Positions 4,277 through 23,838 of a stretch of 24,000 nt of DNA are shown piece after piece (positions within the stretch are counted from its first letter, which is position 1; every line of letters starts with the position of its first letter). The stretch is taken from the NCBI GenBank assembly GCA_013817245.1, contig JACDDA010000003.1, forward strand, positions 233,039 to 257,038, read 5' to 3'. The notes beneath the pieces are model-generated. The model worked only from the letters and a program-made list of their open reading frames with translations. It was not told where the DNA came from and made no database searches. Position numbers and translations under genes: made by a program. This DNA is from Gammaproteobacteria bacterium. GTDB taxonomy: Bacteria; Pseudomonadota; Gammaproteobacteria; HTCC5015.

Positions 4277-5119
4277 TTAATGCGCAACGGGTTTGTTAAC
4301 CGGATTCATCGGCCCTGTTAGTAACATCGGATCTAAACCCGTATCACCCCAATACACGCCCCAATGTAAATGCGGGCCGGTTGCGCGTCCGGTCATGCCT
4401 ATTTCGCCAATTTTTTGGCCTTGTTTTACGACGTCACCTTCGGCGACTACAATTTTACTTAAGTGTGCATAGATACTGGTAACGGCTAAACCATGATCGA
4501 GCATTAATGTTTGGCCGGTAAAAAACATATTCGGATGCACCAAGGTCACAACACCATCAGCGGGTGCAACAATGGCGGTGCCTTCGGGCATCGCCACATC
4601 TACACCGAAATGCGGACTGCGCGCTTCGCCGTTAATGACGCGTTGCGAACCATATTCACCACTTAAGCGACCTTTGACTGGCCAAATAAATCCAGTTAAA
4701 AACTCGGTGCTGTTTCGCACTTTCGCACGCGCCGCTAATATGAGTGAACGTTCTTGTGTATTACGCGCGGCATCGGCTGCGGTTAAATTCACTTTGTTAT
4801 CGGCCACGCCATTGACGCGTGCAATGCTATAGCTGCGTTGTTTAATCGCTTCTTCTAAGATTTGTTTTTTGCCTTGCTGCGATTCAAGCATGATGCGCAT
4901 TTTGTTAGGCGCTTTGCGCGCTAAACCCACTACAAAATAACCGCTGTCTGATACTAATACGGGTTCACCATTAAAATTAACTTTGGTGCCTGCGGTGGTT
5001 TGGCCTATTAATAAACCGCCTTGTTGGAATTCGCCTGTTACTTTCGCTAACTCTTCGGCTTGCAGCAGATGCGAGTAACTCACTATCAACAGCAGCAATA
5101 CGTAAGATATTTTTTTCAC
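4277..5119 (-). CDS. Secreted M23-family metallo-endopeptidase (peptidoglycan DD-endopeptidase-like)
   Basis: N-terminal signal peptide MKKISYVLLLLIVSYSHLLQA. M23 zinc motifs HFGVDV...PEGTAIVAPADGVV and GPHLHWGVYW. GTG start with AGGAG 9 nt upstream. Confidence 0.9.
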   Translation of the reverse strand: MKKISYVLLLLIVSYSHLLQAEELAKVTGEFQQGGLLIGQTTAGTKVNFNGEPVLVSDSGYFVVGLARKAPNKMRIMLESQQGKKQILEEAIKQRSYSIARVNGVADNKVNLTAADAARNTQERSLILAARAKVRNSTEFLTGFIWPVKGRLSGEYGSQRVINGEARSPHFGVDVAMPEGTAIVAPADGVVTLVHPNMFFTGQTLMLDHGLAVTSIYAHLSKIVVAEGDVVKQGQKIGEIGMTGRATGPHLHWGVYWGDTGLDPMLLTGPMNPVNKPVAH

Positions 5120-5167: not shown

Positions 5168-5554
5168 TTATTTCAACATGGTTTTTATAGTGGTAAACGT
5201 CAACATGCCTAGCACGGTTAAACAAAGCGAACCTATAACATGCGTAAACGATAAGCCTAATGCCCACAACCAACGACTTTGTTGCAACAAGTTAACGACT
5301 TCGGCGGAAAAAGTCGAAAACGTGGTGAGGCCACCTAAAAAGCCGGTGATGATTAATAATTTCCATTGCGGTGACAAGGCGGGATATTGCAGAAAAAAAG
5401 CCAACGCGATACCAATAATGTAAGCGCCTAAAAAATTAGCCAGCAATGTGCCTAGCGGCACCGCCGCAAAATAAACATTGAAGTGCTCTGCTAATTGCCA
5501 ACGCAATAAAGCGCCGACGCTTGCACCGAAACAAATCGCGATCACTGCGTACAT
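5168..5554 (-). CDS. crcB: Fluoride ion channel CrcB/FluC
   Basis: 128 aa with four TM segments and the signature GFLGGLTTFSTFS plus GA..R N-terminal motif. Confidence 0.93.
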   Translation of the reverse strand: MYAVIAICFGASVGALLRWQLAEHFNVYFAAVPLGTLLANFLGAYIIGIALAFFLQYPALSPQWKLLIITGFLGGLTTFSTFSAEVVNLLQQSRWLWALGLSFTHVIGSLCLTVLGMLTFTTIKTMLK

Positions 5555-5691: not shown

Positions 5692-5767
5692 TGGCGTCCC
5701 CTAGGGGATTCGAACCCCTGTTGCCGCCGTGAAAGGGCAGTGTCCTAGGCCTCTAGACGAAGGGGAC
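5692..5767 (-). tRNA. tRNA-Glu (anticodon UUC), CCA encoded
   Basis: The reverse complement GTCCCCTTCGTCTAGAGGCCTAGGACACTGCCCTTTCACGGCGGCAACAGGGGTTCGAATCCCCTAGGGGACGCCA folds as a cloverleaf. The anticodon loop is CTTTCAC. It is nearly identical to E. coli tRNA-Glu. Confidence 0.97.
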
Positions 5768-5859
5768 AAAAACTTCACGAACTGATTTCAAGCTGGCTGA
5801 AATCAAATTGCACTTAATTTAAATCGTCTTGCATCTTAACTTTGTCGATCTCTTAAAAC

Positions 5860-5935
<76 letters not shown>

Positions 5936-5985: not shown

Positions 5986-6014
5986 AATTTACGCAAGCTA
6001 CTGCGTACTGTCAA
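5986..6014 (-). promoter_or_regulatory. Sigma70-type promoter for the tRNA-Ala/tRNA-Glu unit with a GC-rich discriminator
   Basis: The minus strand reads TTGACA (6014-6009), a 17-nt spacer, TAAATT (5991-5986), then gcgccctcc. The -35 element overlaps the gltX stop codon (6011-6013). Confidence 0.5.
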
Positions 6015-7420
6015 GCCTGCTGTAGCGTAGCAATCGTCCGATCTAGACGTGCCAAGCTGTGTGGCGCGCCTATTAAGTATAAGGTCAAATCAATGGATGG
6101 CGACGCTCCCTGCCCGGTTACGGCCGCACGCAAAGGTTGTGCGACTTTGCCCATCCCCACTTGGAGTTTTTCGGCGGTTTGCTGAATGGCGACATGAATA
6201 GATTCTTTTTGCCATGCATCGCCCGTGGATAATTCAGCCAAGGCGTTCCGAATAGCGCGCAATGGTTCAAGCGCTGCTGCGTTTAAATGCTTGGCAGCCG
6301 CCTCTTCATAATCGCTAAAGTCTTGATAAAAATAACGGGCGCTAGCGGCCATCTCAACCAAAGTTTTACTGCGTTCACGCAAAGCTAAGACCACATCAAC
6401 TACGGCCGGGCCGCTCGCGGTATTAACGTCTATGCGTTGCAGATACAGCGCTAAACGTTGCGCAATATCTTCCGCCGGCAAGGTTTTTAAATAATGCTGA
6501 TTCAACCACAATAATTTTTCTGGATTAAACGCGGCCGCGGCTTTATTGACATGCGTGACATCAAATAAAGCGATCATTTCATCAATCGAAAACACTTCTT
6601 GATCGCCGTGTGACCAACCTAAGCGCACTAAATAATTCAACAAGGCTTCGGGCAAATAACCGTCTTGCTCATATTGCATCACACTGACGGCGCCGTGACG
6701 TTTCGATAAGCGACTACCATCGGCGCCTAGAATCATCGGTAAATGTGCATAAGCCGGCAGCGTTGCGCCCAACGCGCGCAGAATATTCATTTGGCGCGGT
6801 GTGTTGTTCAAATGATCGTCACCCCGAATCACATGGGTGATGCCCATGTCCATATCGTCGACCACCACGGTGAGGTTATATGTGGGCGTGCCATCACTGC
6901 GCGCAATAATCAAATCATCTAACTCATCATTGCCGAAAATAACTTCACCGCGAATCAAGTCATTAACGACGACCTCGCCGCTTTGCGGATTTCGAAATCG
7001 AATCACCGGTGCAATACCCGCCGGCACGTCGGTGCGATCACGACATAAACCGTCATAACGCGGTTTTTGTTTATTCGCCATTTGTTCGGTGCGCAATGTT
7101 TCTAGGCGTTCTTTGGAACAATAACAATGATAAGCGTGGTTTTGGTGGAGCAGCTGCGCGTTAATTTCGTGATAACGATCAAAGCGCTGAGTTTGATAAT
7201 ACGGACCTTCATCAGCCGCTAAATTCAACCACTGCATGCCTTCTAAAATAGCGTCAACCGATGCTTGAGTAGAACGTTCTTGGTCGGTATCTTCAATACG
7301 CAACACAAACTGTCCCGCAGATTTGCGCGCATATAACCACGAAAACAATGCTGTGCGTGCGCCGCCAATATGTAAGAAGCCAGTAGGACTAGGGGCAAAG
7401 CGAGTTTTAATAACAGTCAT
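6011..7420 (-). CDS. gltX: Glutamate--tRNA ligase
   Basis: Class I HIGH motif ([15 protein letters not shown]) and KMSKS-type motif (RLSKRHG). 469 aa, colinear with bacterial GltX. Confidence 0.97.
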
Positions 7421-7580
7421 GATTCTTCAATGCAGGCAGGTCAAGGAGCCGCGAATTCTAGCAGAGCGACCGAACAGCGCCTAATCCGAACGCTTAGCGG
7501 AAAGCCGGCAAATTTGTCAGACAATTCATGTGGGTCTGTGGCAATATTTAATCTTTCAGAACAAGCAATTGGAAGGCATT

Positions 7581-8333
7581 ATGGGGGCTACACAGCCGTT
7601 AGTTGAATGGCGTTCTTGCGGTCTTACTACCGTGGGCGCAGTGCGTAAACACAATGAAGATTCTTATCTTGCAATGCCCGAAAAAAATCTCTGGGTCGTA
7701 GCGGATGGCATGGGCGGACATGCGCGCGGTGACCTAGCCAGCCAAGCAGTGGTGCATGCGTATAGCGATTTCGAACCGCTACGCACCTTGGCGCAAACCA
7801 TGGACGATCTTGAAGATCGTGCTTTAAAAGTTAACACCAAATTACGCGAACATTTAGACGGTAATCCCAGCAAAGTCATGGGCAGCACCATTGTCTTGAT
7901 GCACGCGCGACAACAATACGTGTTTCTCTTGTGGGCTGGCGATAGTCGTATCTATTTATATCGCAAAGGCAATCTCTTGCAAGTGTCACACGATCATAGT
8001 TTTGTTCAAGAAAGTGTTGATAAAGGTGCGATGACACCGAGTCAAGCACAAAATCATCCTAACGCTAACATCATCACCCGCGCCATCGGCGTGCATGATC
8101 ATTTATATCTCGATGTAGAATATTTAGAATACCAAGCGGGTGATAAATTTTTGCTTTGTTCCGATGGCTTATTTAAAGATGTCACGATGGCTGAGATTGC
8201 AGAACAGCTGGATAAAATTCCGTTTAAAGCAGCGGAAGGTTTAATCGAAATGGCCTTATCAAAAAGCGCCAACGACAACGTAACTATTATTGTGGTGGAA
8301 GCTTTTCCACTAACCACGTCTAGCAAGTCTTAA
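7581..8333 (+). CDS. PP2C-family Ser/Thr protein phosphatase
   Basis: PP2C motifs RKHNEDS, VADGMGGH, AGDSRIY, LLCSDGL, DNVTIIVV. I prefer ATG 7581 (GGAAGG at 7571-7576) over the track's GTG at 7530. Confidence 0.9.
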   Translation: MGATQPLVEWRSCGLTTVGAVRKHNEDSYLAMPEKNLWVVADGMGGHARGDLASQAVVHAYSDFEPLRTLAQTMDDLEDRALKVNTKLREHLDGNPSKVMGSTIVLMHARQQYVFLLWAGDSRIYLYRKGNLLQVSHDHSFVQESVDKGAMTPSQAQNHPNANIITRAIGVHDHLYLDVEYLEYQAGDKFLLCSDGLFKDVTMAEIAEQLDKIPFKAAEGLIEMALSKSANDNVTIIVVEAFPLTTSSKS

Positions 8334-8347
8334 GGATTTAATACAGC

Positions 8348-11300
8348 ATGGCGGCGTCTGTAAACATCAAAGAATTAAACCAATTACTTGATGCCGTTCT
8401 AGATGGTGAACTAGCCCTTGAAGAAGCCGAGATCACTGTCACTGGTTGGTTAAACCGTCATCCCGAACAAGCAGAAGCTTATCTTGCGTATGTTCAGTCT
8501 TATCATCAACAACATCCCTTGCCGGATGCTGCGTTTGAATGTTTCACACGCGCATTAGAAAACACCATTCAGCGCCGAGAAGTAGCTAATGATGACGACA
8601 TTACACGCTTATTAGAACAGCCGGAAAATCTCAAAGCACTGCTACTTAACAATAACCCTGACCAATTAAAAACTTTATTTGGCGGCGACTCGACGCATTT
8701 TGATTTAAATACGATTACCCGCGAACGCGCCACCCATACACAAACACAACCCAACTCCCAGCTTACCGACAGTGGCAGCGTTAAAGCAGGCGATCCAACG
8801 ACGTTGATTTCCGATACCAATTTAAGACGCCATAGCGTTAATCTTGAACGCGGCATGGTAGGACCCGGTTCGACACTTAAAGATCGTTTTGTATTAATTC
8901 GATCGATCGGTGAAGGCGGCATGGGTGTCGTTTACAAAGCCAAAGATTTACTTAAAGTAGAAGCTCACGATCGCAATCCGTATGTTGCGATTAAAGTTTT
9001 ATCACGAGCTTTTCGTTCGCATCAAAATGCTTTTATTTCTTTGCAGCGCGAAGCGAGTAAAGCGCAACGTTTAGCGCATCCCAATATCGGTACGGTTTAC
9101 GATTTCGATCGCGAAGACGATACGATTTATATGACCATGGAGTTATTAGAAGGCACCGAACTTAAAGACTATATTAAACAGTTACCCGTGGATGGCTTAA
9201 GTTTTACAGAAGCCTTTCCGTTAATTGAAGGCATGTCAAATGCACTCGCTTATGCGCATCAAAATAGTTTAATTCACTCGGACTTCAAACCCGGCAATGT
9301 ATTTTTAACGAAAGACGATCACATCAAAGTTATCGACTTCGGTATCGCACGCGCCTCGACTACGCGCAATGCTGAAGGCGAACAAACCGTTTTTGACCCA
9401 GGTCAACTGGGCGCATTAACGCCTGCGTATGCCACTCAAGAAATGTTTGAAGGTCAAAACCCACATCCTAGCGATGATGTTTATGCACTAGGCTGTACGA
9501 GTTATGAATTATTAACCGGTAAACATCCCTACGGAAAATTATCGGCGCCTAAAGCTAAAGAAAAAAATCTCAAACCATTCCGGATTGAAAACAAAAAACT
9601 GACCTCTCGCCAAAAGAAAACCTTGCTGCGCGCGGTAGCGATTAATCGTCAAGACCGCATTCAAAGTATTGATGAATTTATTGAAGGTATACGTCCGCAC
9701 CCCTCGTTCATCATGCCTATTGCCGCTGCTGCTGCATTAATTATTATCTTGCTGGGTTGGGTCGGTTCACTGACTGTTAACAACTATCTCGACAATCAGC
9801 TCCTTATGGCTTTACAAGCAGAAGACGATCTTACCGTCCAAAAAGCGTTAAATGAATTGTTAGCTATGCCCAGCGGCAAATCCCAATTAGCGATTGCTCA
9901 AACCAGTCGCGATAGCATCATGCGTTATTTTGAAACACGCATTGATAATGCCGTTGATCCGCTTAATAACAAGTATGATTATCCCACCGCTGAAAAATTG
10001 CTGGCGCAAGCGAATCGGTTATATGCTGATTCTTCCGTGATTGCTTCGCAGCAAAGTTCTTTAACCACGAGTAAAAATCTACTGCTCCACGAATTAAGTG
10101 AACGTCTAGATCGTGCCTTAAATCAAATACAACTCTTGCCCGATACCAATGCCGACAATATTCCCAAGATTCTGGACATGCTGCAACAGATTGCACCGCA
10201 GCATCCATTGCGTAATGACGAGCGCATAAGCTTAGCGTATGCAAAAGCCACTGAACAAACACTGGCCGCCAACTTACCGGAGCGCGCTAATAACTTATTA
10301 CAAATGGGCTTAAAGTATTTTCCTAATAACGGTCGCTTACAAAATCTTGCCGACCAAACCAATATCGAAACTCGCAAAAATACTGTCGCCAACAACATTG
10401 TTGATTTAGAAAAAACTTTACAGCCGCAACTCGCCACTTTTTCTACTTTAAAAACTGCGCAAGCCCTCGCCGACGCCGTGTTCGCATTACGCCAGCTTGC
10501 GCCACAACACGATTTATTAGCGCGCATTGACGCGCAAATAGAACCTGTATTTAAAACCACACTTAATGAATTTATTAAACAGAAAAACTGGTCATCTGCC
10601 GAAAAATTATTCAACGATAACGCTTTATTATTATCTCCCCTATTTTTAAATGCACACAGACAACAGCTCACACAAGCCGGCAGCAGCGACAATCCGCTTG
10701 CCAACAGTTTACAAACACAGCTATATAAACAGTTAGCATTTGCAGACATTAAAGATTATAGCTGGCATCAAAAAATCGTGGTTGCGCATCACCAACTCAC
10801 TGCCACACTGCCCTTTCAATCAGCCGCCATTCAAAAAATCAATGCGGATATCGCTGCTACTTATATAACAATCGCTAAAAAAATAACCAATCAACATCGC
10901 CATTTCTTAGCTCATGAAATTTTACGTTCTGGCACATTATTTTTAACGGCACAAAACAGTTTGCAAAAAGCCGATGAAGATATTCGCCAAATCCAAATAG
11001 CCTACCAAGCCGAACTCGCTAATCGCGAACGCTTAGCCAAAATAGCCGCTGCCAAACAAAGCTTATTAATCCAAGCAGAGGCCGAAAAAATTGATAAAGC
11101 ATTAACGACTTATCAACAATTAAAAAAAGAACTACCGCAGAACGACAAATTTTTAACCGAGGCTGCGCCTCAAGCGTTAATTAACGTCTTCCTCATCACA
11201 GCAAATCGCGCGATTAACGAGAAAAGAATTAATGAAGCGGAATCTATACTGACGCGTGGTTTAGCTACGTTTCCTGACAATGCTGCATTAAAGACCGCCA

Positions 11301-12523
11301 AAGCTAATTTAAAAGCTCAACTGATTATCGCCGACTTAACTGATTTGTTTGACACGGCCAGCATCCTTACCTTAGATACTATTCGTGAAAAGATTGCCTT
11401 TTTAACGCGTACTACACCCGAGCGCATCGACGCATTGAATCAAGAGTTTAGTGAACGCTTAGCGCGCCGCATAAAAACACTCGAAGCCACGAACCTGCGT
11501 GCAGCGCATGCATTACGTCAACAAGGCTTACAGTTATGGCCCGAAAACAAGGCGCTCCAAAAAGTGGTTCTGCCACCATTACCTAAACCTTCTATTTTTG
11601 CCGCCGACGGTATTAATAAAGCTGAAAATGGATTCATTACAGAAGCCAAAAGTTTGTTACGACAAGCAGAAGTCAAAGAACCTAGACATCCTGATATCAT
11701 GCAACTCAAAACTTTATTGCAACAAAAAACTACTCAAGCGCAAGCAAGCGCACAAGAAGCGCGCCGTGCTTTACAAAATTTTGATTATGCAAGAGCCAGT
11801 GTTGCAATTAATAATGCGGTTGATATGTGGAAAGATCACACAGAATTTAAAGATTTGAAAAAACGCATTGATACCTTCATGCAAAAAATTGCCGCTGGCG
11901 CACGTTTATGCAGCGATAGAATGATGAGTTATGGTCAAGATGATCGCGCCGGTTGTTATGATCTATTATCGAACAACACACGTGCATTACAACTCGTGGT
12001 AATCCCTCCCTTTGCTATAGGCCAACCCGCCTATGCCATGAGTAAATATGAAATCTCCAACGCGGAACTCGATTTGTTTTGCGAAGCGTCCGGACAATGT
12101 AAAGTCGGCGATAATGCCACGCAACCTGCAACGCAAGTCACGCCCCAAATCGCTCAGGCTTACGCAAACTGGTTATCGGAAGAAACTGGATTTACTTATC
12201 GTCTGCCGACAGTGAGCGAATGGCAACACGCTGCTAATGCGGGCGGGCGCGAAGCCAATAGCGACTATAATTGCAAACTGCGCGCAGGCAAGCAACTTAT
12301 CAAACGCCCAGCCTTACTCAATACCAGCTTCGGCAAAGCTAATCGTTGGGGTGTTGTTAATTATGTTGGCAATGCGCAAGAATTAGCGGGTAGTGGTAAC
12401 AGCTGGCAAACTTTAGGCGGGCATTACCAAGACACCATGTCTAATTGCAATACACAGTTGAGTCGCAATTATAGTGGCCCAAATGCATTAACTGGCTTTC
12501 GCTTAATCCGCGAACTTAACTAA
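8348..12523 (+). CDS. Bitopic Hanks-type Ser/Thr protein kinase with a long TPR-like extracytoplasmic region and a C-terminal FGE-sulfatase (SUMF1-like) domain
   Basis: Kinase domain at about 8888-9700: Gly loop GEGGMGVVYKA, VAIKVL, catalytic loop HSDFKPGN, DFGIAR, TPAYATQE. Single TM segment FIMPIAAAAALIIILLGWVGSLTV (about 9706-9777). Repeated A..LL..GL..FP.N..L motifs. C-terminal YRLPTVSEWQHAANAGG ... NRWGVVNYVGNAQE ... LTGFRLIREL is typical of FGE-sulfatase domains. Confidence 0.9.
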   Translation: MAASVNIKELNQLLDAVLDGELALEEAEITVTGWLNRHPEQAEAYLAYVQSYHQQHPLPDAAFECFTRALENTIQRREVANDDDITRLLEQPENLKALLLNNNPDQLKTLFGGDSTHFDLNTITRERATHTQTQPNSQLTDSGSVKAGDPTTLISDTNLRRHSVNLERGMVGPGSTLKDRFVLIRSIGEGGMGVVYKAKDLLKVEAHDRNPYVAIKVLSRAFRSHQNAFISLQREASKAQRLAHPNIGTVYDFDREDDTIYMTMELLEGTELKDYIKQLPVDGLSFTEAFPLIEGMSNALAYAHQNSLIHSDFKPGNVFLTKDDHIKVIDFGIARASTTRNAEGEQTVFDPGQLGALTPAYATQEMFEGQNPHPSDDVYALGCTSYELLTGKHPYGKLSAPKAKEKNLKPFRIENKKLTSRQKKTLLRAVAINRQDRIQSIDEFIEGIRPHPSFIMPIAAAAALIIILLGWVGSLTVNNYLDNQLLMALQAEDDLTVQKALNELLAMPSGKSQLAIAQTSRDSIMRYFETRIDNAVDPLNNKYDYPTAEKLLAQANRLYADSSVIASQQSSLTTSKNLLLHELSERLDRALNQIQLLPDTNADNIPKILDMLQQIAPQHPLRNDERISLAYAKATEQTLAANLPERANNLLQMGLKYFPNNGRLQNLADQTNIETRKNTVANNIVDLEKTLQPQLATFSTLKTAQALADAVFALRQLAPQHDLLARIDAQIEPVFKTTLNEFIKQKNWSSAEKLFNDNALLLSPLFLNAHRQQLTQAGSSDNPLANSLQTQLYKQLAFADIKDYSWHQKIVVAHHQLTATLPFQSAAIQKINADIAATYITIAKKITNQHRHFLAHEILRSGTLFLTAQNSLQKADEDIRQIQIAYQAELANRERLAKIAAAKQSLLIQAEAEKIDKALTTYQQLKKELPQNDKFLTEAAPQALINVFLITANRAINEKRINEAESILTRGLATFPDNAALKTAKANLKAQLIIADLTDLFDTASILTLDTIREKIAFLTRTTPERIDALNQEFSERLARRIKTLEATNLRAAHALRQQGLQLWPENKALQKVVLPPLPKPSIFAADGINKAENGFITEAKSLLRQAEVKEPRHPDIMQLKTLLQQKTTQAQASAQEARRALQNFDYARASVAINNAVDMWKDHTEFKDLKKRIDTFMQKIAAGARLCSDRMMSYGQDDRAGCYDLLSNNTRALQLVVIPPFAIGQPAYAMSKYEISNAELDLFCEASGQCKVGDNATQPATQVTPQIAQAYANWLSEETGFTYRLPTVSEWQHAANAGGREANSDYNCKLRAGKQLIKRPALLNTSFGKANRWGVVNYVGNAQELAGSGNSWQTLGGHYQDTMSNCNTQLSRNYSGPNALTGFRLIRELN

Positions 12524-12535
12524 AGGAATAATTTC

Positions 12536-13147
12536 ATGAGCAGAGCAGGTCTTCCTGAATCTAACTTACGCAAACTCGCTATCGCTTACGCCAGCGGTAA
12601 AGTTGATCGCGAAAATTATCGTAAACTTCGCACAAGACAATTAAGCGCTTTAGATTTTGATAAAGCGTTGCCCGATTTACCAGATGAAATTGCCGCGATT
12701 GGTGTGCCCTCTGTAAAAGTAGATGCACCGAAAAATGCTGGCGGCAATCTTCTTAAAGGGCGTTCTCTAAAAACAATTGTCATGGCAATAGCGGCGATTG
12801 TATTAGTAGGCATCGTCGGAATATATTTTACGGGCGACAATAAAAAATCAAATGAACAAACACAAAATACGCAGAAAATTGATTTAGCCGTAGAAGCCCA
12901 AAAATTAATTCAAAAGCCCGAATGGACTAATAGTGACATGGGATATTTTAAACGTCTTTGGGATAGCCAAGAAGCACAAGAATTAACCACTGCTCGAGAA
13001 AGCCGCTGGTTTGCAGACTTAGAAAGAGATATCGTACGGCGCATTAATGAAAATAAACAATTAATGCAAACCGCCGAAGATAGTGAAGCGGTACAAAAAC
13101 AATTAACTGATTTGCGTTTGTTCTACGCACAGCTCGCGACGGAATAA
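12536..13147 (+). CDS. Hypothetical bitopic membrane protein, likely translationally linked to the kinase
   Basis: Starts 12 nt after the kinase stop, with AAGGA 9 nt upstream. One TM segment IVMAIAAIVLVGIVGIYF, an N-terminal cytoplasmic part of about 80 aa and a C-terminal helical part of about 100 aa. No recognisable family. Confidence 0.7.
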   Translation: MSRAGLPESNLRKLAIAYASGKVDRENYRKLRTRQLSALDFDKALPDLPDEIAAIGVPSVKVDAPKNAGGNLLKGRSLKTIVMAIAAIVLVGIVGIYFTGDNKKSNEQTQNTQKIDLAVEAQKLIQKPEWTNSDMGYFKRLWDSQEAQELTTARESRWFADLERDIVRRINENKQLMQTAEDSEAVQKQLTDLRLFYAQLATE

Positions 13148-13155
13148 ATTACCTA

Positions 13156-13188
13156 AGCTGTTCTCAATCGTTGAGAACAGCTGCTTTT
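13156..13188 (+). terminator. Rho-independent terminator closing the phosphatase-kinase operon
   Basis: agctgttctcaa-tcg-ttgagaacagct (perfect 12-bp stem), followed by gctttt. Confidence 0.8.
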
Positions 13189-13382: not shown

Positions 13383-14204
13383 ATGTCAGCCGATGCATGG
13401 ATACGCTTAATATGTTTCAGCGGTGTTTTCAGTCTACTGTTGATTTTAGAACGGTACTGGCCGCAGCGTCGCAAAACGGTGGCCGCATCCTTCAGATACG
13501 GAGCACGCTGGTTCAACAATCTCGGTTTATTGTTATTAAATAGCATCCTGCTGCGCGCGTTGACCGTCGTGGCAACATTAAGCAGTGCTTTATGGGCTAC
13601 TCAACATCAATGGGGACTATTCAATCTGATCAGCTTGCCCGTGTTGGTCAAAACCTTGATCACCTTGATAATATTGGATCTGCTTATTTATGCTCAGCAC
13701 CGACTCATGCACAGCTGGCCACTGTTGTGGCAACTCCACCAAATTCATCACAGCGACATTGATCTCGATCTCACTACCGGCGGCCGCTTTCATCCACTTG
13801 AAATAGGATTGTCGATTTTGCTGCAATCGGTCGTCATCGTTTTATTAGGACTTAATGTTGTCGGCGTTTTAGCCTATGGAATCTTGCTCAATGCATTTGC
13901 CCTCTTCGTGCACGCCAATCTCCGTTTAAATTCTAAACTGGATGCCGGCTTACGACGAATAGTGATTACGCCTGATTTACATCGCATCCATCATTCACAA
14001 ATTGTGCATGAAACTAACAGCAATTACGGCACGATACTCAGCGGCTGGGATCGGTTGTTTAAGAGTTACCGTGCTACTGCGCAACAAGCGCCTGCCGATA
14101 TTGACATTGGCCTGACCCAATATCCACACAACTTAAGCCTGCTAGCATTATTGTTATTACCTTGGCGGACGCATGCCAGATCCAATTCCAAACACTCAAC
14201 GTAA
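13383..14204 (+). CDS. Fatty acid hydroxylase / sterol desaturase superfamily integral membrane di-iron protein
   Basis: Multi-TM protein with the three His boxes of the family: HRLMH, HQIHHSD, HRIHHS. It also has the RFHPLE motif. Confidence 0.85.
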   Translation: MSADAWIRLICFSGVFSLLLILERYWPQRRKTVAASFRYGARWFNNLGLLLLNSILLRALTVVATLSSALWATQHQWGLFNLISLPVLVKTLITLIILDLLIYAQHRLMHSWPLLWQLHQIHHSDIDLDLTTGGRFHPLEIGLSILLQSVVIVLLGLNVVGVLAYGILLNAFALFVHANLRLNSKLDAGLRRIVITPDLHRIHHSQIVHETNSNYGTILSGWDRLFKSYRATAQQAPADIDIGLTQYPHNLSLLALLLLPWRTHARSNSKHST

Positions 14205-14259
14205 ATACTAATACGCGAAATTATTTTATCAATACTCACATTACCTAAAAGAGAACATC

Positions 14260-15219
14260 ATGCGCGCCATGCTGCCTTTATTACAAGCAACTGATTTTCC
14301 TAAGATCCGTCGGCAATCGTTACAGACCTTACAAGTCAATCTTGGTTATCGTTGCAATCAAGCGTGTTTTCATTGTCATGTAAATGCTGGCCCCACACGC
14401 ACCGAAGCCATGGACAGCGACACCATTAATACCGTGCTAAGGTTTATCGAACAACACAACATTACCACCTTAGACATCACTGGCGGCGCACCCGAATTAC
14501 ATCCACAATTTCGTGAACTAGTCAGCGCTGCACGCACACGCAATGTGCATGTCATTGATCGTTGCAATCTCACTGTTCTATTAGAACCGGATCAAAGCGA
14601 TACCGCTGCTTTTCTTGCGCAGCAGAAAGTTGAAATTGTTGCTTCATTACCTTGTTATCTAGAAAGCAATGTCGATGAACAGCGTGGCGATGGCGTATTT
14701 CAAAAAAGTGTAGAGGCTTTACATTTGCTCAACAAATTAGGTTACGGCATGCTCAATAGCAGTCTAACTTTAAATTTAGTTTACAATCCTATCGGCGCTT
14801 ACCTACCATCCGCACAAGAAAATCTAGAAATAGATTACAAACGCGAACTTCAAGCTCGTTACAACATTCATTTTAATCATCTATTTGCCTTAACCAATAT
14901 GCCCATTGCACGATTTGGCAGTACTTTAGTAACACAAGGTAAATTTGAAGAATACATGACACTGCTAAAAAATGCTTATCAAGCCAGCAACTTAGATAAT
15001 CTAATGTGTCGTTCGTTAATCAGCATTGACTACCAAGGTTATGTTTACGATTGCGATTTTAACCAAATGCTCGGCATAGGCTTAGGAGCAAGCAATAAAC
15101 TTCGAACCCACATTCGAGAATTACTCGATCACAATCTAAACGACACACCGATTGCAATTGCCGATCATTGTTATGGCTGTACTGCGGGTCAAGGTAGCAG
15201 TTGCGGCGGCGCACTTTAA
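14260..15219 (+). CDS. Radical SAM / Cys-rich C-terminal domain protein (ArsS-like family)
   Basis: CNQACFHCH (CxxxCxxC, 14353-14376) near the N-terminus, and a GGAPEL SAM-binding-like motif. The C-terminal Cys-rich tail is CRSLISIDYQGYVYDCDFN ... DHCYGCTAGQGSSCGGAL. Confidence 0.88.
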   Translation: MRAMLPLLQATDFPKIRRQSLQTLQVNLGYRCNQACFHCHVNAGPTRTEAMDSDTINTVLRFIEQHNITTLDITGGAPELHPQFRELVSAARTRNVHVIDRCNLTVLLEPDQSDTAAFLAQQKVEIVASLPCYLESNVDEQRGDGVFQKSVEALHLLNKLGYGMLNSSLTLNLVYNPIGAYLPSAQENLEIDYKRELQARYNIHFNHLFALTNMPIARFGSTLVTQGKFEEYMTLLKNAYQASNLDNLMCRSLISIDYQGYVYDCDFNQMLGIGLGASNKLRTHIRELLDHNLNDTPIAIADHCYGCTAGQGSSCGGAL

Positions 15220-15223
15220 TGCT

Positions 15224-15901
15224 ATGAAATTATCGATCATCATTCCCACACTCAATGAAGCCGCGCGCATTCAACACACGCTTCAATCACTGCAAACATT
15301 ACGTGGCACATATGCTGAAATTATTCTGGTTGATGGCGGCAGCAACGACAACACGCTCATGCTTGCGCAGTCCTTATGCGATTATACAATCAGCAGCGCA
15401 CGCGGACGCGCACAACAAATGAACGCCGGCGCTGCCATTGCTACGGGTGATGTTTTATTATTTTTACATGCCGATACACAATTGCCTACGAACGCACTCG
15501 CTATACTTCAGCAGCACGAACAATCTCTAAGCTGGGGGCGTTTTGACATCCGCTTAAGCGGACAACATTTTTTATTTCGCATTATCGAGCGAATGATCAA
15601 TTCGCGCTCTCGACTGACAGGCATTGCCACCGGCGATCAAGCTATTTTTGTAACACGTGAATTATTTTTTCGTAGCGGTGCTTACCCTGCACTTCCGCTC
15701 ATGGAGGATATTGCTTTAAGTCGCACATTGCGGCAACACAATAAACCCTTATGTTTACGCGACACTGTCATTAGCGATAGCCGCTATTGGGAAACCCATG
15801 GCATCATCAGAACCGTATGCCGCATGTGGTATTTACGGCTAGCTTATTTTTGCGGCGTATCTTCCGAAAAATTAGTTCGTCAGTATTATCGTAATACTTA
15901 A
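15224..15901 (+). CDS. Family-2 glycosyltransferase-like protein (the type described as rSAM/selenodomain-associated transferase 2)
   Basis: MKLSIIIPTLNEA...EIILVDGGSNDNT...LFLHADT is a GT2 N-terminal Rossmann/DxD-like pattern. ATG 15224 lies 4 nt after the rSAM stop. The track's start at 15152 overlaps the rSAM gene and is unlikely. Confidence 0.85.
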   Translation: MKLSIIIPTLNEAARIQHTLQSLQTLRGTYAEIILVDGGSNDNTLMLAQSLCDYTISSARGRAQQMNAGAAIATGDVLLFLHADTQLPTNALAILQQHEQSLSWGRFDIRLSGQHFLFRIIERMINSRSRLTGIATGDQAIFVTRELFFRSGAYPALPLMEDIALSRTLRQHNKPLCLRDTVISDSRYWETHGIIRTVCRMWYLRLAYFCGVSSEKLVRQYYRNT

Positions 15902-15906
15902 ATCGA

Positions 15907-16563
15907 ATGCCAGAAAATAATTCCACACAATTATTGATCTTTACTAAAGCCCCTATACCCGGCCAGGTAAAAACGCGTTTAATCCCTGCATTAAGCGCGG
16001 CAGCAGCGGCTGAACTGCATATAAAATTACTTGCCCACACCTTAGAACAAGTTAAAACTCTCACATGGCGCAAACAACTTTGGTGCGCGCCCGATACACA
16101 ACACCCACTATTTGCGACTTATCAACAACAATTCAACGTATCCTTACATCAACAAATAGGTGAAGATTTGGGTGCGCGCATGCAACATGCATTTGCCACC
16201 GCCTTTAAACAAGCAGAACAAGTCATCATCATTGGCAGCGATTGCCCCGCGATTGATCACCAATATCTAGTCGAAGCACAACAAAGCCTGAACCATAAAA
16301 CGCCCGTAGTATTAGGTCCTGCTGAAGACGGCGGATATGTATTGATAGGCCTCCAACGCACCGACCCCGCGAAACTGCAAAAAACTTTTACTGCACTGTT
16401 TAACGAGATGCCATGGAGTCAACCGAACTTGCTGCGCTTAACCATTAACCAACTGCATACAGCCAATATTGGCTGCCAGTGCCTGACAACAAAACGAGAC
16501 GTTGATACCCTGGACGACCTTGCCTGGTTAACAAGGCAACACTCGCTATTATTAAGTCAGTGA
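15907..16563 (+). CDS. DUF2064 family protein (CofC/MobA-like nucleotidyltransferase fold; the type described as rSAM/selenodomain-associated transferase 1)
   Basis: LLIFTKAPIPGQVKTRL...IIIGSDCPAID...VLGPAEDGGYVLIGL are the hallmark DUF2064 motifs. It starts 5 nt after the GT2 stop. Confidence 0.85.
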   Translation: MPENNSTQLLIFTKAPIPGQVKTRLIPALSAAAAAELHIKLLAHTLEQVKTLTWRKQLWCAPDTQHPLFATYQQQFNVSLHQQIGEDLGARMQHAFATAFKQAEQVIIIGSDCPAIDHQYLVEAQQSLNHKTPVVLGPAEDGGYVLIGLQRTDPAKLQKTFTALFNEMPWSQPNLLRLTINQLHTANIGCQCLTTKRDVDTLDDLAWLTRQHSLLLSQ

Positions 16564-16762: not shown

Positions 16763-17662
16763 ATGAATAAACTGCTCACATGGATACGATCGGAACGCTG
16801 CCAACGCATAGCCCCTTGGATAGTGAGTGGACTATTGATTATGGGCATTGCCAGCCATACCGCCCTACTCACTTGGCACTGGTTTGGCAACGCTGCTGCT
16901 GAACCCGTTATCACCGACCAAAATTTCCCGGTACAAAATAAAGAAACCGCTATGCAGGATGCCAACAACATTGCCGAACAACATTTGTTTGGTGAAAGTG
17001 CGTGGCTTGCAGGTGATTTAAGTGGCGCTCCCGAAACCCAAATGAATTTAGAACTGCGCGGCGTGTTTGCATTTGGCGAAGACAGTGGTTGGGCGTTAAT
17101 CGCGAGCGGCGGCGGAATCGAACAAGTATATGGAATGGGTCAAGTGGTTCCCGGCAACGCTACTTTAAAAGCCGTGTTCCCCGATCGCGTCGTCCTGGAA
17201 AGTGGCCGCGGTCTGGAAACGTTGCTCATGCCCAAAGAAAGTCCTTTGCTGAGTTTTGCAGAAAACTCCAACGATACGGCGAATGCCAATCAAGTTTACA
17301 AACCTGATCCCACTGCTTTGCCGCGCGGAATAGGCCGTTTTGAAGCCTCAGTGAAAAACTATCGCCGCGAATTTATGGCCAACCCGGCTGCGATCGGTGA
17401 ATACGTTGACATTACCGCTTTCAAAGAAAATGAACGCGTCCGTGGTTATCAAGTGAATCCTAAAAAAGATGATCCGGTGTTAAAAGAAATGGGCGTACAA
17501 GCGGGTGATGTGGTCACGGCGGTTAATGGAATTCAATTAGATAACGAACAAAATCGCTATCGCGCTTTACGTGCGATGATGAAAGACCCGAATATTAGCC
17601 TAACGGTAGAACGCGACGGTCAAACACAAGAGCTAAAAAAAGAGATTCCTGCTGATAATTAA
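16763..17662 (+). CDS. gspC: Type II secretion system protein C (TM anchor, HR domain, C-terminal PDZ)
   Basis: N-terminal TM segment APWIVSGLLIMGIASHTALL. HR-domain pattern LELRGVFAF...WALIA...EQVYGMGQVVPGNATLKAVFPDRVVLE. PDZ-like GYQVNP...LKEMGVQAGDVVTAVNG. It sits directly upstream of gspD. Confidence 0.88.
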   Translation: MNKLLTWIRSERCQRIAPWIVSGLLIMGIASHTALLTWHWFGNAAAEPVITDQNFPVQNKETAMQDANNIAEQHLFGESAWLAGDLSGAPETQMNLELRGVFAFGEDSGWALIASGGGIEQVYGMGQVVPGNATLKAVFPDRVVLESGRGLETLLMPKESPLLSFAENSNDTANANQVYKPDPTALPRGIGRFEASVKNYRREFMANPAAIGEYVDITAFKENERVRGYQVNPKKDDPVLKEMGVQAGDVVTAVNGIQLDNEQNRYRALRAMMKDPNISLTVERDGQTQELKKEIPADN

Positions 17663-17754
17663 TTGCCGAGAAAAATCACTTCGTCATAAAACTGCATGGC
17701 GATGTAATTAAACTTCGGCTCATTTTTCTTTTACTATAAAACGATTTGGTACTC

Positions 17755-20340
17755 ATGCGCATAGTCACAAAAAAACTTCTGCTTAGCACCCTTTGTGGGC
17801 TGACCATTTTTGCAACAGGCTTCACGGCGATTGCACAACCCAACACAGAAGAAGTACCTTATGGCAGCAATCCGCCGTCAACGGAAACGCCGCCGGATAT
17901 GCAACAACCGTATATGCCTACACCTGCCATGAACGGTATGCCTGATAGCATGAGCACCAATTCCAGCGCCAATTCAAACGGCAATAACAACAGTCGTTTC
18001 GTACCCAGCCAAATCAACAATCGGAATAATCTCGGCAACAAAACCTCGAACGATGCTAGTAGCGGCGGCGGTGCCACTTTAAATTTAAGCGATGCGGATA
18101 TTCGTGTGTTGATCAACACGGTTTCTGAAATTACCGGCAAGAATTTTATTATCGATCCGCGTGTTAAAGCCAAAATCACCGTCGTCTCATCCAAGCCCAT
18201 GCAAAAAGATGAGTTATACGAAGTGTTTTTATCTATTCTGCAAGTTCATGGCTTCGCTGCCATTCCCAGCAAAAAAGGCTTAATCAAAATTGTTCCAGAT
18301 GCCATTGCTAAGCAAGGCGCTATTCCCACGGTCGATGGCAATCAATATCGTGACTCCGATCAATTAGTCACTCGTGTATTACAGGTACAAAATATTTCGG
18401 CCAATCAATTAATTCCGATTTTACGTCCGCTGATTCCCAATCAAGGTCATCTCGCAGCGTACGCGCCTACCAATGTATTAGTCATTTCAGATCAAGCATC
18501 TAACATTAATCGCATTTTGCATATCATTCGCCAGATCGATCAAGTGAGCAATGCTGATGTTGAAATCATTCGCGTTGAAAATGCAGCAGCGGGTGAAATT
18601 GTACGCATATTAAATTCATTAGCGCAAAAAGATCAAAAAGCAGCGCCCGAATCAGTGCAAACCAGTTTTATTGCAGACGAACGCACCAATAGCATTTTAT
18701 TAACCGGCGACTCCGGTTCACGTAAACGTATTTCTAAATTAATTTCGGAATTAGATGCGCCATTAACGTCAACCGGCAATACCCGCGTATTCTTTTTGAA
18801 ATACGCAGATGCCAAAGAGCTTACAACTATTTTACAAGGTGTATCAGCCAAAACCAGTGATGGCAAAACCGCGCCTGCCGCCGGCAACAAAAGCGATGTC
18901 GACATTCAAGCCGATATCACCAACAACGCTTTAATTATCACTGCGCCTGCTTCATTAATTCGCCAATTTGATTCAGTCATCAAACAACTCGACATCCCGC
19001 GTGCGCAAGTATTAATCGAAGCCATCATCGCTGAAGTGTCAACCGATTTAGCCACTGAATTAGGTTCGCAGTTATTAGTGAATGGTTCAGAAGATGGTCG
19101 CGGGCCAGTCGGCGGTGTGTTATTTAGAGAATCAAATGACATTAGCAGTTGGGTCACCGACACACCGATTGTAAAAGACGGTTTGAATCTCGCTATTGGT
19201 CGCACCGATGTCGCAAATCAATTTGCCTTGGTGTTGCGCGCTTTACAAGGTGATGCCGCCACTAATATTTTATCAACGCCTACCTTAGTTACTTTAGATA
19301 ATGTGGAAGCAGAAATTGTTTTTGGCCAGAACGTGCCGTTTGTAACCGGTAGTTACTCCAACACTGGCGCAAACAACGGTTCTACCAATCCTTTCCAAAC
19401 TATTCAACGTCAAGATGTCGGCTTAACCTTAAAAGTAAAACCGCAAATTAATGAAGGCACCAGTGTTAAATTAAATATTTCACAAGAAGTATCAAACATT
19501 GCGAGCTCTAGCAGCGGCGCCAGCGATATCGTTACGAATAAACGCTCTATTAAAACCGAAGTACTCGTCGATGATGGTCAAATGTTAGTACTGGGCGGCT
19601 TAATTGAAGATCAGTTCACCGACAGTGTACAAAAAGTTCCTTTGCTCGGCAGCATTCCCATCATTGGTCATTTATTTCGTTACACCAAAACACAAAAAGT
19701 AAAACGCAACCTAATGGTATTTATTCGGCCAGTCATTTTAAGCGATAGCGTCCGTGCTAATTATTTCACCCAGAAAAAATATAGTGCTTTTAAAGAACGT
19801 CAAGATCAAGCCAAAATTGGTAAGCGTGGTTTATTACGTGATAGCGCTGCAAAATTACCGCCGATTGATACGTTATTTACACCAATGCCGCCAGCAACAA
19901 CACCGATTGCAGCGCCAGTGGTAATGCCACAGGCAACTCCTGCTATTACACCAGTTACACCCACATCCACTGTGGTTCCCGCCAATGAAACCAGCGGAAC
20001 CAACAACACAACACCTCCTGCTGTAACAGGCGAAGCAGTTTCAACATCTACATCAACTCAGGTGGTTGTAACAGGTGAAGCTGTTCCAGCTTCGACAACA
20101 ACACTTGTCGCGCCTGCTCCAGCACCGGCATCAACACCGGCAAACAGTGAAAATATTTCGCCGACGACTGATAGCACCGATACAAAAAAGACAATGACAG
20201 AAGCCGAAGCCATTGCCGCTGCCGAGCAAGCGTTTGAATTTACTCCCTCCGAAGCGAGTGTAGAAACAAATACACTAACTAACAGTAAGACGCCTGCTAT
20301 TTCCACCTCCAGCAACAGTAATACTGCTACAACACCATGA
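17755..20340 (+). CDS. gspD: Type II secretion system secretin GspD with atypical low-complexity N-terminal linker and C-terminal extension
   Basis: Signal peptide MRIVTKKLLLSTLCGLTIFATGFTAIA. N0 domain LNLSDADIRVLINTVSEITGKNFIIDPRVKAKITV. Secretin core ATNILSTPTLVTLDNVEAEI...VPLLGSIPIIGHLFRYT...NLMVFIRPVIL. ATG 17755 is preferred to TTG 17746. Confidence 0.95.
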   Translation: MRIVTKKLLLSTLCGLTIFATGFTAIAQPNTEEVPYGSNPPSTETPPDMQQPYMPTPAMNGMPDSMSTNSSANSNGNNNSRFVPSQINNRNNLGNKTSNDASSGGGATLNLSDADIRVLINTVSEITGKNFIIDPRVKAKITVVSSKPMQKDELYEVFLSILQVHGFAAIPSKKGLIKIVPDAIAKQGAIPTVDGNQYRDSDQLVTRVLQVQNISANQLIPILRPLIPNQGHLAAYAPTNVLVISDQASNINRILHIIRQIDQVSNADVEIIRVENAAAGEIVRILNSLAQKDQKAAPESVQTSFIADERTNSILLTGDSGSRKRISKLISELDAPLTSTGNTRVFFLKYADAKELTTILQGVSAKTSDGKTAPAAGNKSDVDIQADITNNALIITAPASLIRQFDSVIKQLDIPRAQVLIEAIIAEVSTDLATELGSQLLVNGSEDGRGPVGGVLFRESNDISSWVTDTPIVKDGLNLAIGRTDVANQFALVLRALQGDAATNILSTPTLVTLDNVEAEIVFGQNVPFVTGSYSNTGANNGSTNPFQTIQRQDVGLTLKVKPQINEGTSVKLNISQEVSNIASSSSGASDIVTNKRSIKTEVLVDDGQMLVLGGLIEDQFTDSVQKVPLLGSIPIIGHLFRYTKTQKVKRNLMVFIRPVILSDSVRANYFTQKKYSAFKERQDQAKIGKRGLLRDSAAKLPPIDTLFTPMPPATTPIAAPVVMPQATPAITPVTPTSTVVPANETSGTNNTTPPAVTGEAVSTSTSTQVVVTGEAVPASTTTLVAPAPAPASTPANSENISPTTDSTDTKKTMTEAEAIAAAEQAFEFTPSEASVETNTLTNSKTPAISTSSNSNTATTP
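20023..20112 (+). repeat. Two tandem 45-nt (15-aa) units inside the gspD 3' extension
   Basis: VTGEAVSTSTSTQVV / VTGEAVPASTTTLVA. The 18-nt heads gtaacaggcgaagcagtt (20023-20040) and gtaacaggtgaagctgtt (20068-20085) match at 16/18. The remainder of each unit has diverged. Confidence 0.6.
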
Positions 20341-21896: not shown

Positions 21897-21898
21897 TC

Positions 21899-23142: not shown

Positions 23143-23727
23143 TCAATAACGCAGCACTAAACGATATAACCATAACAGCACAAAAAATAGCAACCCGCCG
23201 ATAGCACCGTACAAATGCGCTTCAGTAATTATCGCTCCGCCAATCCATGCACTGGTTGCTGACATCGCGCCTTGTTGATGCTCATAAACTAATTTAGCCA
23301 GCACGCCGACTAACAAAAAGCTATTCGCATAAGGCCGCTGGCGAATGCTGAGTAAAACTCCGCTGATTAATAAACCATGCAAGGCGCCGGATAAACCCAC
23401 ATACCACTGCAAATGCGGCAGCCACCACCACATACCCAGTGAAACTATCAACATACAAAACACTAAACTCGCGAACCAAATGGATGCTTTAGGATTGGGC
23501 ACGTCCTGAATCCATAAGCAGGTGATCAAGACCAAGGCGATACTATTTAATAGAGCATGCCGCCAACCCAAATGTACAAAGTGGCCTGTCAACAAACGCC
23601 AATATTCACCGTCTATAATGGCCGGTCTAGACCAGCACCAAAACTCAAGATCGTGCCATTGGAAACCAATACCCAATAGCAACGTCAGAAGACACAATGC
23701 GCTTATTTGTAAATGTGCTTTTGACAT
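23143..23727 (-). CDS. rrtA: Rhombosortase-like rhomboid-family intramembrane serine protease
   Basis: About 194 aa and polytopic. GEYWRLLTGHFVHLGWRHALLNS (rhombosortase-type TM2 motif), catalytic GLSGALHG, and a second-half His in EAHLYGAIGGL. The start is ambiguous: ATG 23727 (preferred) or GTG 23739. Confidence 0.8.
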   Translation of the reverse strand: MSKAHLQISALCLLTLLLGIGFQWHDLEFWCWSRPAIIDGEYWRLLTGHFVHLGWRHALLNSIALVLITCLWIQDVPNPKASIWFASLVFCMLIVSLGMWWWLPHLQWYVGLSGALHGLLISGVLLSIRQRPYANSFLLVGVLAKLVYEHQQGAMSATSAWIGGAIITEAHLYGAIGGLLFFVLLWLYRLVLRY

Positions 23728-23838
23728 GCGGCAGATCACTCGTTTGACGTAGATAGGTTAAGATAGCAACTTAAATAAACGCTGCGATGCTGATTAAACT
23801 GTTCAGTTCGCGTATTCAACCACAATGGAGATTATTCG

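Follow-up and report, generated by a model that had tools for sequence, protein, structure and literature searches.

In the threonine-phosphorylation pathway of the H1 type VI secretion system (H1-T6SS) of Pseudomonas aeruginosa, TagR promotes the activation of the kinase PpkA from the periplasm, PppA is the PP2C phosphatase and Fha1 is the FHA target, as summarized in reviews. TagR1 (PA0071) is described in later papers as a protein with a formylglycine-generating enzyme (FGE)-sulfatase domain (COG1262). Here, we analyze a stretch of 24,000 nucleotides (the window) from a Gammaproteobacteria bacterium of the HTCC5015 lineage (contig JACDDA010000003.1, positions 233,039 to 257,038), in which three adjacent genes encode a PP2C phosphatase (gene 1), a large transmembrane Hanks-type kinase ending in an FGE-like domain (gene 2) and a small bitopic protein (gene 3). 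On balance, we favor the view that these genes are the conserved core of a PpkA/PppA-like module for threonine phosphorylation in Gammaproteobacteria, in which a TagR-like sensor has been fused to the kinase.

Other described systems share parts of this design. In Gram-positive bacteria, PASTA kinases and Stp1-type phosphatases form pairs (PknB-PstP, Stk1-Stp1, PrkC-PrpC) in which, as in our locus, an operon joins a PP2C phosphatase to a bitopic Hanks kinase with an extracytoplasmic ligand-binding region. However, the sensor here is predicted to consist of a TPR-like solenoid and an FGE fold in place of PASTA repeats, and the host is Gram-negative, with a periplasm. The FGE fold is itself C-type-lectin-like. 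Two proteins with no kinase attached have periplasmic domains of this fold that lack the FGE cysteine pair: PvdO, which takes part in the maturation of pyoverdine, and PorK/GldK, of which PorK is a structural part of a secretion machine, as a ring lipoprotein of the type IX secretion system. The combination of kinase, transmembrane segment and FGE-sulfatase domain, which is also reflected in NCBI naming, was noted in 2005 for chlamydial PknD (kinase plus DUF323/FGE-sulfatase) and forms the 'Proteo1' family in a 2025 atlas of the bacterial serine/threonine kinome. Both are catalogue entries without an assigned function, and no report on PknD or 'Proteo1' in the literature searched mentions a long solenoid, a constant association with PP2C and gene 3, or the neighborhoods with FHA-cyclases, two-partner secretion (TPS) or T6SS genes described below. 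Literature searches likewise returned no dedicated study of the function of this kinase family, of gene 3, or of a link to FHA-cyclases and TPS.

The three genes stay together among relatives, which were sampled with one genome per species to give 80 loci. The PP2C gene lies immediately upstream of the kinase in 66 of the 67 loci with enough upstream DNA, and a gene-3 homologue immediately downstream in 65 of the 70 with enough downstream DNA; where there is DNA on both sides, all three are adjacent in 55 of 59. Chance adjacency is thus excluded, and the single unit that a preliminary description of the window had proposed, together with a synteny check across genomes, is borne out. Since the trio occurs in at least six different flanking contexts, its conservation exceeds inherited synteny. 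Homologues of the kinase number in the thousands, and more than 100 of them are full-length proteins (~1450 residues) from uncultured Gammaproteobacteria that share 33-39% identity with it over nearly the whole length, with conservation along the entire alignment. Cultured carriers among the 80 loci include Marinospirillum alkaliphilum DSM 21637, M. perlucidum and two Saccharospirillum strains.

Gene 1 is predicted to encode a PP2C/PPM Ser/Thr phosphatase of the PppA/Stp1-like family, but no Stp1 equivalog. The protein matches Pfam PP2C_2 (8.6e-14) and NCBIfam Stp1_PP2C_phos (5.5e-61; 206 bits, under the equivalog cut-off of 230), and its metal-site motifs are all present (RKHNED, DGMGG, GDSR, SDGL and DNVT). 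It has no transmembrane segment by hydropathy and is cytoplasmic. Gene 2 is assigned by its motifs to the Hanks-type kinases, with the catalytic motifs intact: Pfam Pkinase covers residues 183-422 (3.8e-39), and GEGGMGVV, VAIK, HSDFKPGN and DFG are present here and invariant in 15 homologues. The catalytic loop reads HSD, not HRD, which makes the kinase a non-RD type. The match to NCBIfam PknB_PASTA_kin (7.4e-59; 200 bits against a cut-off of 450) is limited to the kinase domain, and Pfam detects no PASTA repeat in the protein.

Across the 1391 residues of the kinase, a single Kyte-Doolittle peak reaches 1.6 or more (maximum 2.57). Because the kinase domain must be cytoplasmic and there is one transmembrane segment, the C-terminal 910 residues are placed in the periplasm. 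Six of the eight cysteines of the protein (1188, 1203, 1245, 1251, 1309 and 1367) fall in its last domain and all six are invariant among homologues; this confinement of the invariant cysteines to the extracytoplasmic domain fits an oxidizing compartment. The order of kinase, membrane segment, helical region and FGE-sulfatase domain given in the preliminary description agrees with these data (Table 1), as does its view of a receptor kinase that crosses the membrane once and carries, outside the cytoplasm, a large sensor of helical repeats and an FGE-like domain, which topology, AlphaFold and Foldseek all support.

The cytoplasmic region that precedes the kinase domain has two parts. In the first, residues 1-60, full-length homologues share the consensus MxDFxxLLxxxxxGxxxLxxxRxWxD, and there is no Pfam match. 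Homology of this segment with the SHOCT-like helix of gene 3 was considered but is not supported: the same positions are aligned, but hhalign gives an E-value of 0.021 and a probability of 2%. The second part is a linker that, across 109 homologues, contains 13.7% Thr compared with 5.9% in the whole proteins, and 3.3 [DEG]xTx[VILM] motifs per protein against 0.68 in shuffled sequences, a ~5-fold excess. The linker of the window kinase itself has 12% Thr and two such motifs. The enrichment in threonine and in motifs suggests that the linker is probably phosphorylated.

Gene 3 is far less conspicuous. Domain-library and PADLOC scans give no family match for the window protein, and when its sequence alone was compared with 5.8 billion proteins, nothing but the protein itself was recovered. 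Homologues were recovered by a synteny-guided iterative search (jackhmmer on related loci), and a profile search returned 16 unnamed proteins. Gene 3 evolves fast and defines an unannotated family that is revealed by synteny only. In an alignment of 29 sequences, L14, G21, Y28, R32, W130 and L193 are invariant and two blocks are conserved, the cytoplasmic N-terminal helix (LRxLAxxYAxGxIxxxxYRxxRxxLI) and a periplasmic helical domain of ~90 residues that contains the invariant Trp130. SHOCT (PF09851) is matched by nine of the 29 homologues (best 3.7e-6) and not by the window protein at E <= 0.01; one homologue, from locus L025, exceeds the Pfam cut-off (31.1 bits against 27). FGE-sulfatase domains are fused to the gene-3 homologues of L018 (1e-45), L034 (4.8e-43), L054 and L081, and SPOR domains to those of L018, L025 and L060. 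Since these FGE-sulfatase and/or SPOR domains are C-terminal, the C-terminus of gene 3 is placed in the periplasm.

Two variants of the system bear on gene 3. The L018 homologue (642 residues) combines a SHOCT-like N-terminus, a transmembrane segment, a full FGE-sulfatase domain and a SPOR domain, and has the make-up of a membrane-anchored TagR-like protein. A short form of the system is found in L072, L075, L078, L080 and L083, where the kinase (~670 residues) matches only residues ~170-672 of the window protein and is without most of the solenoid and without the FGE domain. There, the kinase gene is followed by a gene-3 homologue of ~99 residues with the N-terminal helix and the transmembrane segment alone, which suggests that these two elements are the smallest portion of gene 3 able to work with the kinase.

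Could the trio be a Gram-negative analogue of the PASTA kinase/Stp1 pairs? In that case it would survey the cell wall or the division site: the periplasmic lectin-fold domain and gene 3 would read a feature of peptidoglycan or of a glycan, and the kinase would directly tune envelope synthesis or division, without any FHA-cyclase. The best curated matches of both enzymes point in this direction (Stp1/IreP for the phosphatase and PknB/Stk1 for the kinase), but both fall under the equivalog cut-offs. SPOR domains bind septal peptidoglycan, and their fusion to gene-3 homologues hints at a peptidoglycan connection; such fusions are nevertheless found in few of ~65 gene-3 homologues. A weak FtsN-like match over the transmembrane region of gene 3 (E 0.016), the lectin-like fold of the FGE domain and the lack of an FHA-cyclase in the window would also fit. 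Conversely, there is no PASTA domain, no cell-wall or division gene is a conserved neighbor, and the M23 peptidase gene of the window is not conserved beside the trio. We consider this explanation unlikely, though worth keeping in mind: it bears mainly on the input and could in part hold together with a PpkA/PppA-like module.

What would such a module act on? When the flanking open reading frames of the relatives were clustered and the representatives scanned with Pfam, one recurrent partner was a fusion of ~300 residues that joins a class III adenylate/guanylate cyclase domain (1.6e-22) to an FHA domain (3.1e-11). This FHA-cyclase is encoded within 7 kb in 45 of the 80 loci; among the 40 loci with 3 kb or more on each side, it is present in 29. 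Its gene lies either shortly upstream in the same orientation or downstream and convergent. It is also present in the closest relatives (P0003 and P0004), whose kinase is 48-49% identical to that of the window and whose genes lie beside the same divergent gltX. Because the FHA-cyclase is adjacent in so many loci, the closest relatives included, the relatives of the trio suggest an FHA protein as the class of target.

The gene order in these closest relatives is gltX (minus strand), PP2C, a 201-residue gene-3 homologue (40% identical, 3e-38), a 955-residue kinase, a convergent FHA-cyclase and a giant repeat protein. The order within the unit is therefore variable (PP2C-gene 3-kinase in L084/L085), with the genes still together. 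By comparison, the window has gene 3 after the kinase and not before it, ~390 additional solenoid residues (643-1033), and a fatty-acid hydroxylase gene after the terminator instead of the FHA-cyclase and the giant protein. The window locus thus reads as a stripped-down version, from whose neighborhood the FHA gene has been lost, while its nearest kin carry the FHA partner. In L084, the FHA-cyclase (6519-7415) and the giant repeat protein together occupy 6519-12999 on the minus strand, and both are also present in L085. The giant protein exceeds 1850 residues, has no Pfam match and ends in an acidic C-terminal tail; Saccharospirillum and Marinospirillum have similar repeat proteins beside the module (cluster c25).

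Secretion genes are the other recurrent neighbors. TpsB (ShlB+POTRA_2) is encoded in 39 of the 80 loci, the TpsA exoprotein (TPS domain) in 27 and a PpiC-type peptidyl-prolyl isomerase in 29; the TPS genes are usually divergent upstream, and lie downstream in L070. In L018 (a Sedimenticolaceae metagenome-assembled genome, 3-12715) and in L070 (another metagenome-assembled genome), the PP2C-kinase pair directly follows tssL (DotU+OmpA), tssM (IcmF) and tagF. The product of a gene downstream (833 residues) weakly matches a PGAP1-like alpha/beta-hydrolase and is a possible effector of the lipase type. Alternatively, then, the module could be a secretion-coupled checkpoint that monitors or gates the export of a giant exoprotein (TpsA through TpsB) or T6SS firing, the window copy being an orphan whose secretion partner has been lost. 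The frequency of TPS and isomerase genes, their occurrence both divergently upstream and downstream, the T6SS context of L018 and L070, and the giant repeat protein beside the FHA-cyclase in the closest relatives are all in line with this. However, the window contains no TPS or T6SS gene, and its only secretion genes, those of a type II secretion system (gspCDEF), lie 3.6 kb downstream beyond four unrelated genes. The trio also occurs without secretion genes in L015-L017, L020, L025 and L080, and the adjacency to TPS genes may partly be inherited synteny. A checkpoint of this kind seems rather improbable to us.

The periplasmic part of the kinase begins with a long solenoid. In the AlphaFold model (confidence, pLDDT, 89.4), residues 480-1175 are all-alpha, with 34 helices and no strand of three residues or more, and Foldseek matches them to the TPR/HAT solenoids of Ctr9, Ski3, TTC7, LbcA and OGT-TPR (E 6e-6 to 1e-3). 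The solenoid is modular, as residues ~643-1033 are absent in the closest relatives. The domain at its end matches Pfam FGE-sulfatase over residues 1227-1348 (2.9e-10; 40.7 bits against a gathering score of 23.3), and the model of residues 1165-1391 (pLDDT 78.9) has an FGE/PvdO-type fold. A comparison with FGE-sulfatase models had been set beforehand as a test of the domain, and both results support the assignment. In Foldseek, PvdO is the best match (template modelling score 0.60, E 8.6e-9), accompanied by ToxD and by the human, S. coelicolor and T. curvata FGE (E 2e-7 to 7e-7); a profile search of the PDB returned ToxD, PvdO, PorK and FGE, and the final 63 residues of the kinase, when searched against the PDB, gave nothing useful.

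Fold and chemistry part ways at the active site. Active FGE has two catalytic, copper-binding cysteines in the motif GGSxxCxxxxC. The equivalent in the window is GGHYQDTMSNC, with Asp1362 where the first catalytic cysteine is expected, as determined by a residue-level comparison bridged through the canonical FGE domain of the L018 gene-3 homologue. Asp1362 is invariant in alignments of 15 and of 20 homologues, and the non-enzymatic PorK/GldK aligns with the same Asp-type motif (GGSWKD). In addition, the domain is short (~200 residues compared with ~270 for FGE, only positions 35-190 of the 255 in the profile being aligned). Given the invariant Asp in place of the first cysteine, the short domain, and PvdO rather than FGE as the closest structure, the domain is best regarded as a binding or sensor domain; catalysis is not plausible, contrary to the expectation in the preliminary description that such domains are usually enzymes.

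These observations bear on the NCBI product name of the homologues, 'bifunctional serine/threonine-protein kinase/formylglycine-generating enzyme family protein', which implies a kinase joined to an active FGE that matures periplasmic sulfatases. The name itself, the Pfam score above the gathering threshold and the fold match to FGE (E ~2e-7) speak for such an enzyme. Nonetheless, no sulfatase gene is found in the window or among the conserved neighbors, and the Cys-to-Asp change leads us to reject an active FGE, so that a bifunctional enzyme is very improbable and the product name is probably misleading in overstating the function of the domain. An anti-phage defense kinase system is hardly credible, and membership in one is rejected: the kinase matches PADLOC PD-T4-6 (5.4e-59) and mad6 (4.2e-51) as well as NCBIfam MADS6 and PglW, but these matches are confined to the generic kinase domain (~174-450) and the NCBIfam ones score 128.6 against 460 and 53.7 against 990, gene 3 matches no defense family and the phosphatase only weakly the candidate family PDC-M21C (1.7e-10), no partner genes are present, the surroundings are housekeeping genes syntenic across species and not a variable island, and a large periplasmic sensor would be unexpected for intracellular phage sensing.

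We return to the comparison with PpkA/PppA/TagR. In both systems a PP2C phosphatase is paired with a Hanks kinase that spans the membrane and has a sensor region in the periplasm, a periplasmic FGE-sulfatase-domain module acts, or is proposed to act, on the kinase (TagR1 in P. aeruginosa), and a phosphothreonine-binding FHA protein is, or is proposed to be, the output (Fha1 there, the FHA-cyclase of the 45 relatives here); two orthologous loci even lie right after tssL-tssM-tagF. By analogy with TagR, the action of a domain of the FGE fold on a Hanks kinase has a functional precedent. On the other hand, TagR is a separate protein, whereas the FGE fold here is fused to the kinase behind a 700-residue solenoid; TagQ, TagS and TagT are seen neither in the window nor among the annotated conserved neighbors; the SHOCT-like bitopic gene 3 has no counterpart in P. 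aeruginosa; the window has no T6SS or FHA gene; and the FHA protein of the relatives is mostly a nucleotide cyclase and not a T6SS scaffold. The preliminary description had set the locus apart from PpkA/PppA-type T6SS modules. This stands for the local neighborhood, as no FHA, T6SS or response-regulator gene is found in the 24-kb window, but not for the family, given the T6SS-linked loci L018 and L070 and the frequency of the FHA-cyclase. It had also treated input and output as obscure; the family context makes them less so, pointing to sensing at the cell envelope and to an output protein that would read phosphothreonine.

The gene structure, domain folds, integrity of the catalytic motifs, loss of the FGE cysteine, topology, and conservation of the trio and its neighbors are directly supported; from these we infer a cue, phosphosites, an FHA output and a role for gene 3. 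In this model, the kinase resides in the inner membrane, and its disulfide-rich FGE-like domain, held at the end of the ~700-residue solenoid, would be the cis-fused counterpart of TagR; gene 3 would serve as an accessory protein or a second sensor. A periplasmic or cell-envelope cue would be bound or sensed by these three elements, the FGE-like domain, the solenoid and gene 3. The activated kinase would then phosphorylate threonines, probably those of its own Thr-rich N-terminal linker, where an FHA protein that reads phosphothreonine could dock and be switched on, as the gene neighborhoods suggest. In most relatives the adjacent FHA-class III cyclase would produce cyclic AMP or cyclic GMP (cAMP/cGMP), with a T6SS context in two relatives, and the PP2C phosphatase would reset the system by dephosphorylation. 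In the genome of the window, the FHA partner would have to be encoded outside the 24-kb window or to have been replaced.

Several observations weigh against a PpkA/PppA-like module. Only the domain family connects the locus with TagR, and the closest solved structure is that of PvdO. PpkA of P. aeruginosa carries a different periplasmic domain. T6SS-linked loci are only two of the 80, and part of the conservation of the neighbors is inherited synteny rather than selection, because many of the 80 loci have housekeeping neighbors in common (ubiG, gph, sdh). Finally, no FHA protein, cyclase, T6SS or TPS gene is present in the 24-kb window, so the output proposed from the relatives may not apply to it, and a sigma-70 consensus scan of the 160-nt intergenic region upstream of gene 1 found no site.

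The layout of the locus is nonetheless that of an operon (Table 1). Independent gene calling places the boundaries identically in two further assemblies of this DNA, for products of 250, 1391 and 203 residues, in keeping with the gaps of 14 nt (genes 1 and 2) and 12 nt (genes 2 and 3) reported earlier. Both gaps contain a Shine-Dalgarno-like AGGA 8-9 nt upstream of the ATG, and the ribosome-binding site of gene 1 is GGAAGG, 5 nt upstream of its start. The closing terminator of the preliminary description is confirmed as a perfect 12-bp hairpin at 13156-13182 with a folding free energy of -17.4 kcal/mol (z = -5.4; no shuffle out of 200 folds as stably). Next comes GCTTTTAAG, in which the T-run has only four T, so that the signal is good but not textbook. 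An Rfam scan found no non-coding RNA in or near the operon. An antisense open reading frame within the kinase gene (10123-10749, minus strand; 208 residues, Cys/Ser/Ala-rich translation) lies opposite a real gene and is most likely spurious.

Table 1. Coordinates of the operon and its parts in the window.
Feature	Position	Strand	Product or extent	Basis
Intergenic region between divergent gltX and gene 1, presumed promoter region	7421..7580	+		sequence reading
Gene 1, PP2C phosphatase	7581-8333	+	250 aa	
Gene 2, kinase	8348-12523	+	1391 aa	
Kinase, conserved N-terminal cytoplasmic helical domain	8348..8527	+	residues 1-60	homologue alignment
Kinase, Thr-rich linker, poorly conserved; candidate phosphothreonine docking region	8528..8863	+	residues 61-172	
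Kinase, Hanks-type Ser/Thr kinase domain, non-RD	8894..9694	+	residues 183-449	Pkinase, motifs
Kinase, single predicted transmembrane segment	9707..9778	+	residues ~454-477	Kyte-Doolittle
Kinase, predicted periplasmic TPR-like alpha-solenoid	9785..11872	+	residues 480-1175	AlphaFold, Foldseek
Kinase, predicted periplasmic non-catalytic FGE-sulfatase (TagR/PvdO-like) domain	11909..12523	+	residues 1188-1391 and stop codon	
Gene 3, bitopic protein	12536-13147	+	203 aa; cytoplasmic SHOCT-like helix ~9-40, transmembrane segment ~79-100, periplasmic helical domain ~120-203	
Intrinsic-terminator-like hairpin, operon end	13156..13188	+	stem of 12 perfect pairs, 3-nt loop, then GCTTTT	

Upstream of the operon, the divergent gltX (6011-7420, minus strand) encodes glutamyl-tRNA synthetase and has tRNA-Glu(UUC) and tRNA-Ala(GGC) genes immediately 3' of it (5692-5935, minus strand), so that it precedes the gene for its own tRNA substrate. 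Further on are a CrcB fluoride-channel gene (5168-5554, minus strand; Pfam CRCB 1.1e-27) and, 2.5 kb upstream of the operon, the gene of a secreted M23 peptidase of the peptidoglycan endopeptidase family (4277-5119, minus strand; 8.2e-30). No fluoride riboswitch is detected across the window at the Rfam gathering score. Directly past the terminator, four genes (13383-16563, plus strand) encode by Pfam a fatty-acid hydroxylase family protein, a radical SAM protein with DUF3641, a family-2 glycosyltransferase and a DUF2064 protein. This group resembles a separate biosynthetic cluster and sits where the closest relatives carry the FHA-cyclase and the giant repeat protein. It is followed by the type II secretion cluster gspC, gspD, gspE and gspF (16763-23125, plus strand), whose GspD secretin (864 residues) has an unusual C-terminal tail of ~150 residues rich in Thr, Pro, Ala and Ser. 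Relatives of the kinase module often have secretion genes (TPS, T6SS) beside it, and the nearness of the type II cluster here may or may not be meaningful. Just past them, a rhomboid-family membrane protease is encoded (23143-23739, minus strand; 1.4e-11), which, like the M23 peptidase, is not a conserved neighbor of the module.

Ser/Thr kinase signaling in Gram-negative bacteria is poorly understood, and the activation of PpkA-type kinases is debated. The fusion of a TagR-like domain to the kinase would offer a model, in one polypeptide, of how an FGE fold activates a Hanks kinase across the membrane. Similarly, the FHA-cyclase neighbor suggests a route from threonine phosphorylation to cyclic nucleotides, of which no description was found in the literature searched. 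A broader and still tentative idea is that the family represents an undescribed form of envelope surveillance in Gram-negative bacteria, in which a TagR-like lectin-fold domain in cis and a dedicated bitopic partner would lead from a periplasmic or surface cue through phosphothreonine to an FHA-cyclase, to cAMP/cGMP and to the control of TPS or T6SS, the window copy being a naturally uncoupled core rewired toward a different output. The FHA-cyclase output and the coupling to secretion are visible in the relatives and not in the window, and the cultured carriers in Marinospirillum and Saccharospirillum make these ideas testable.

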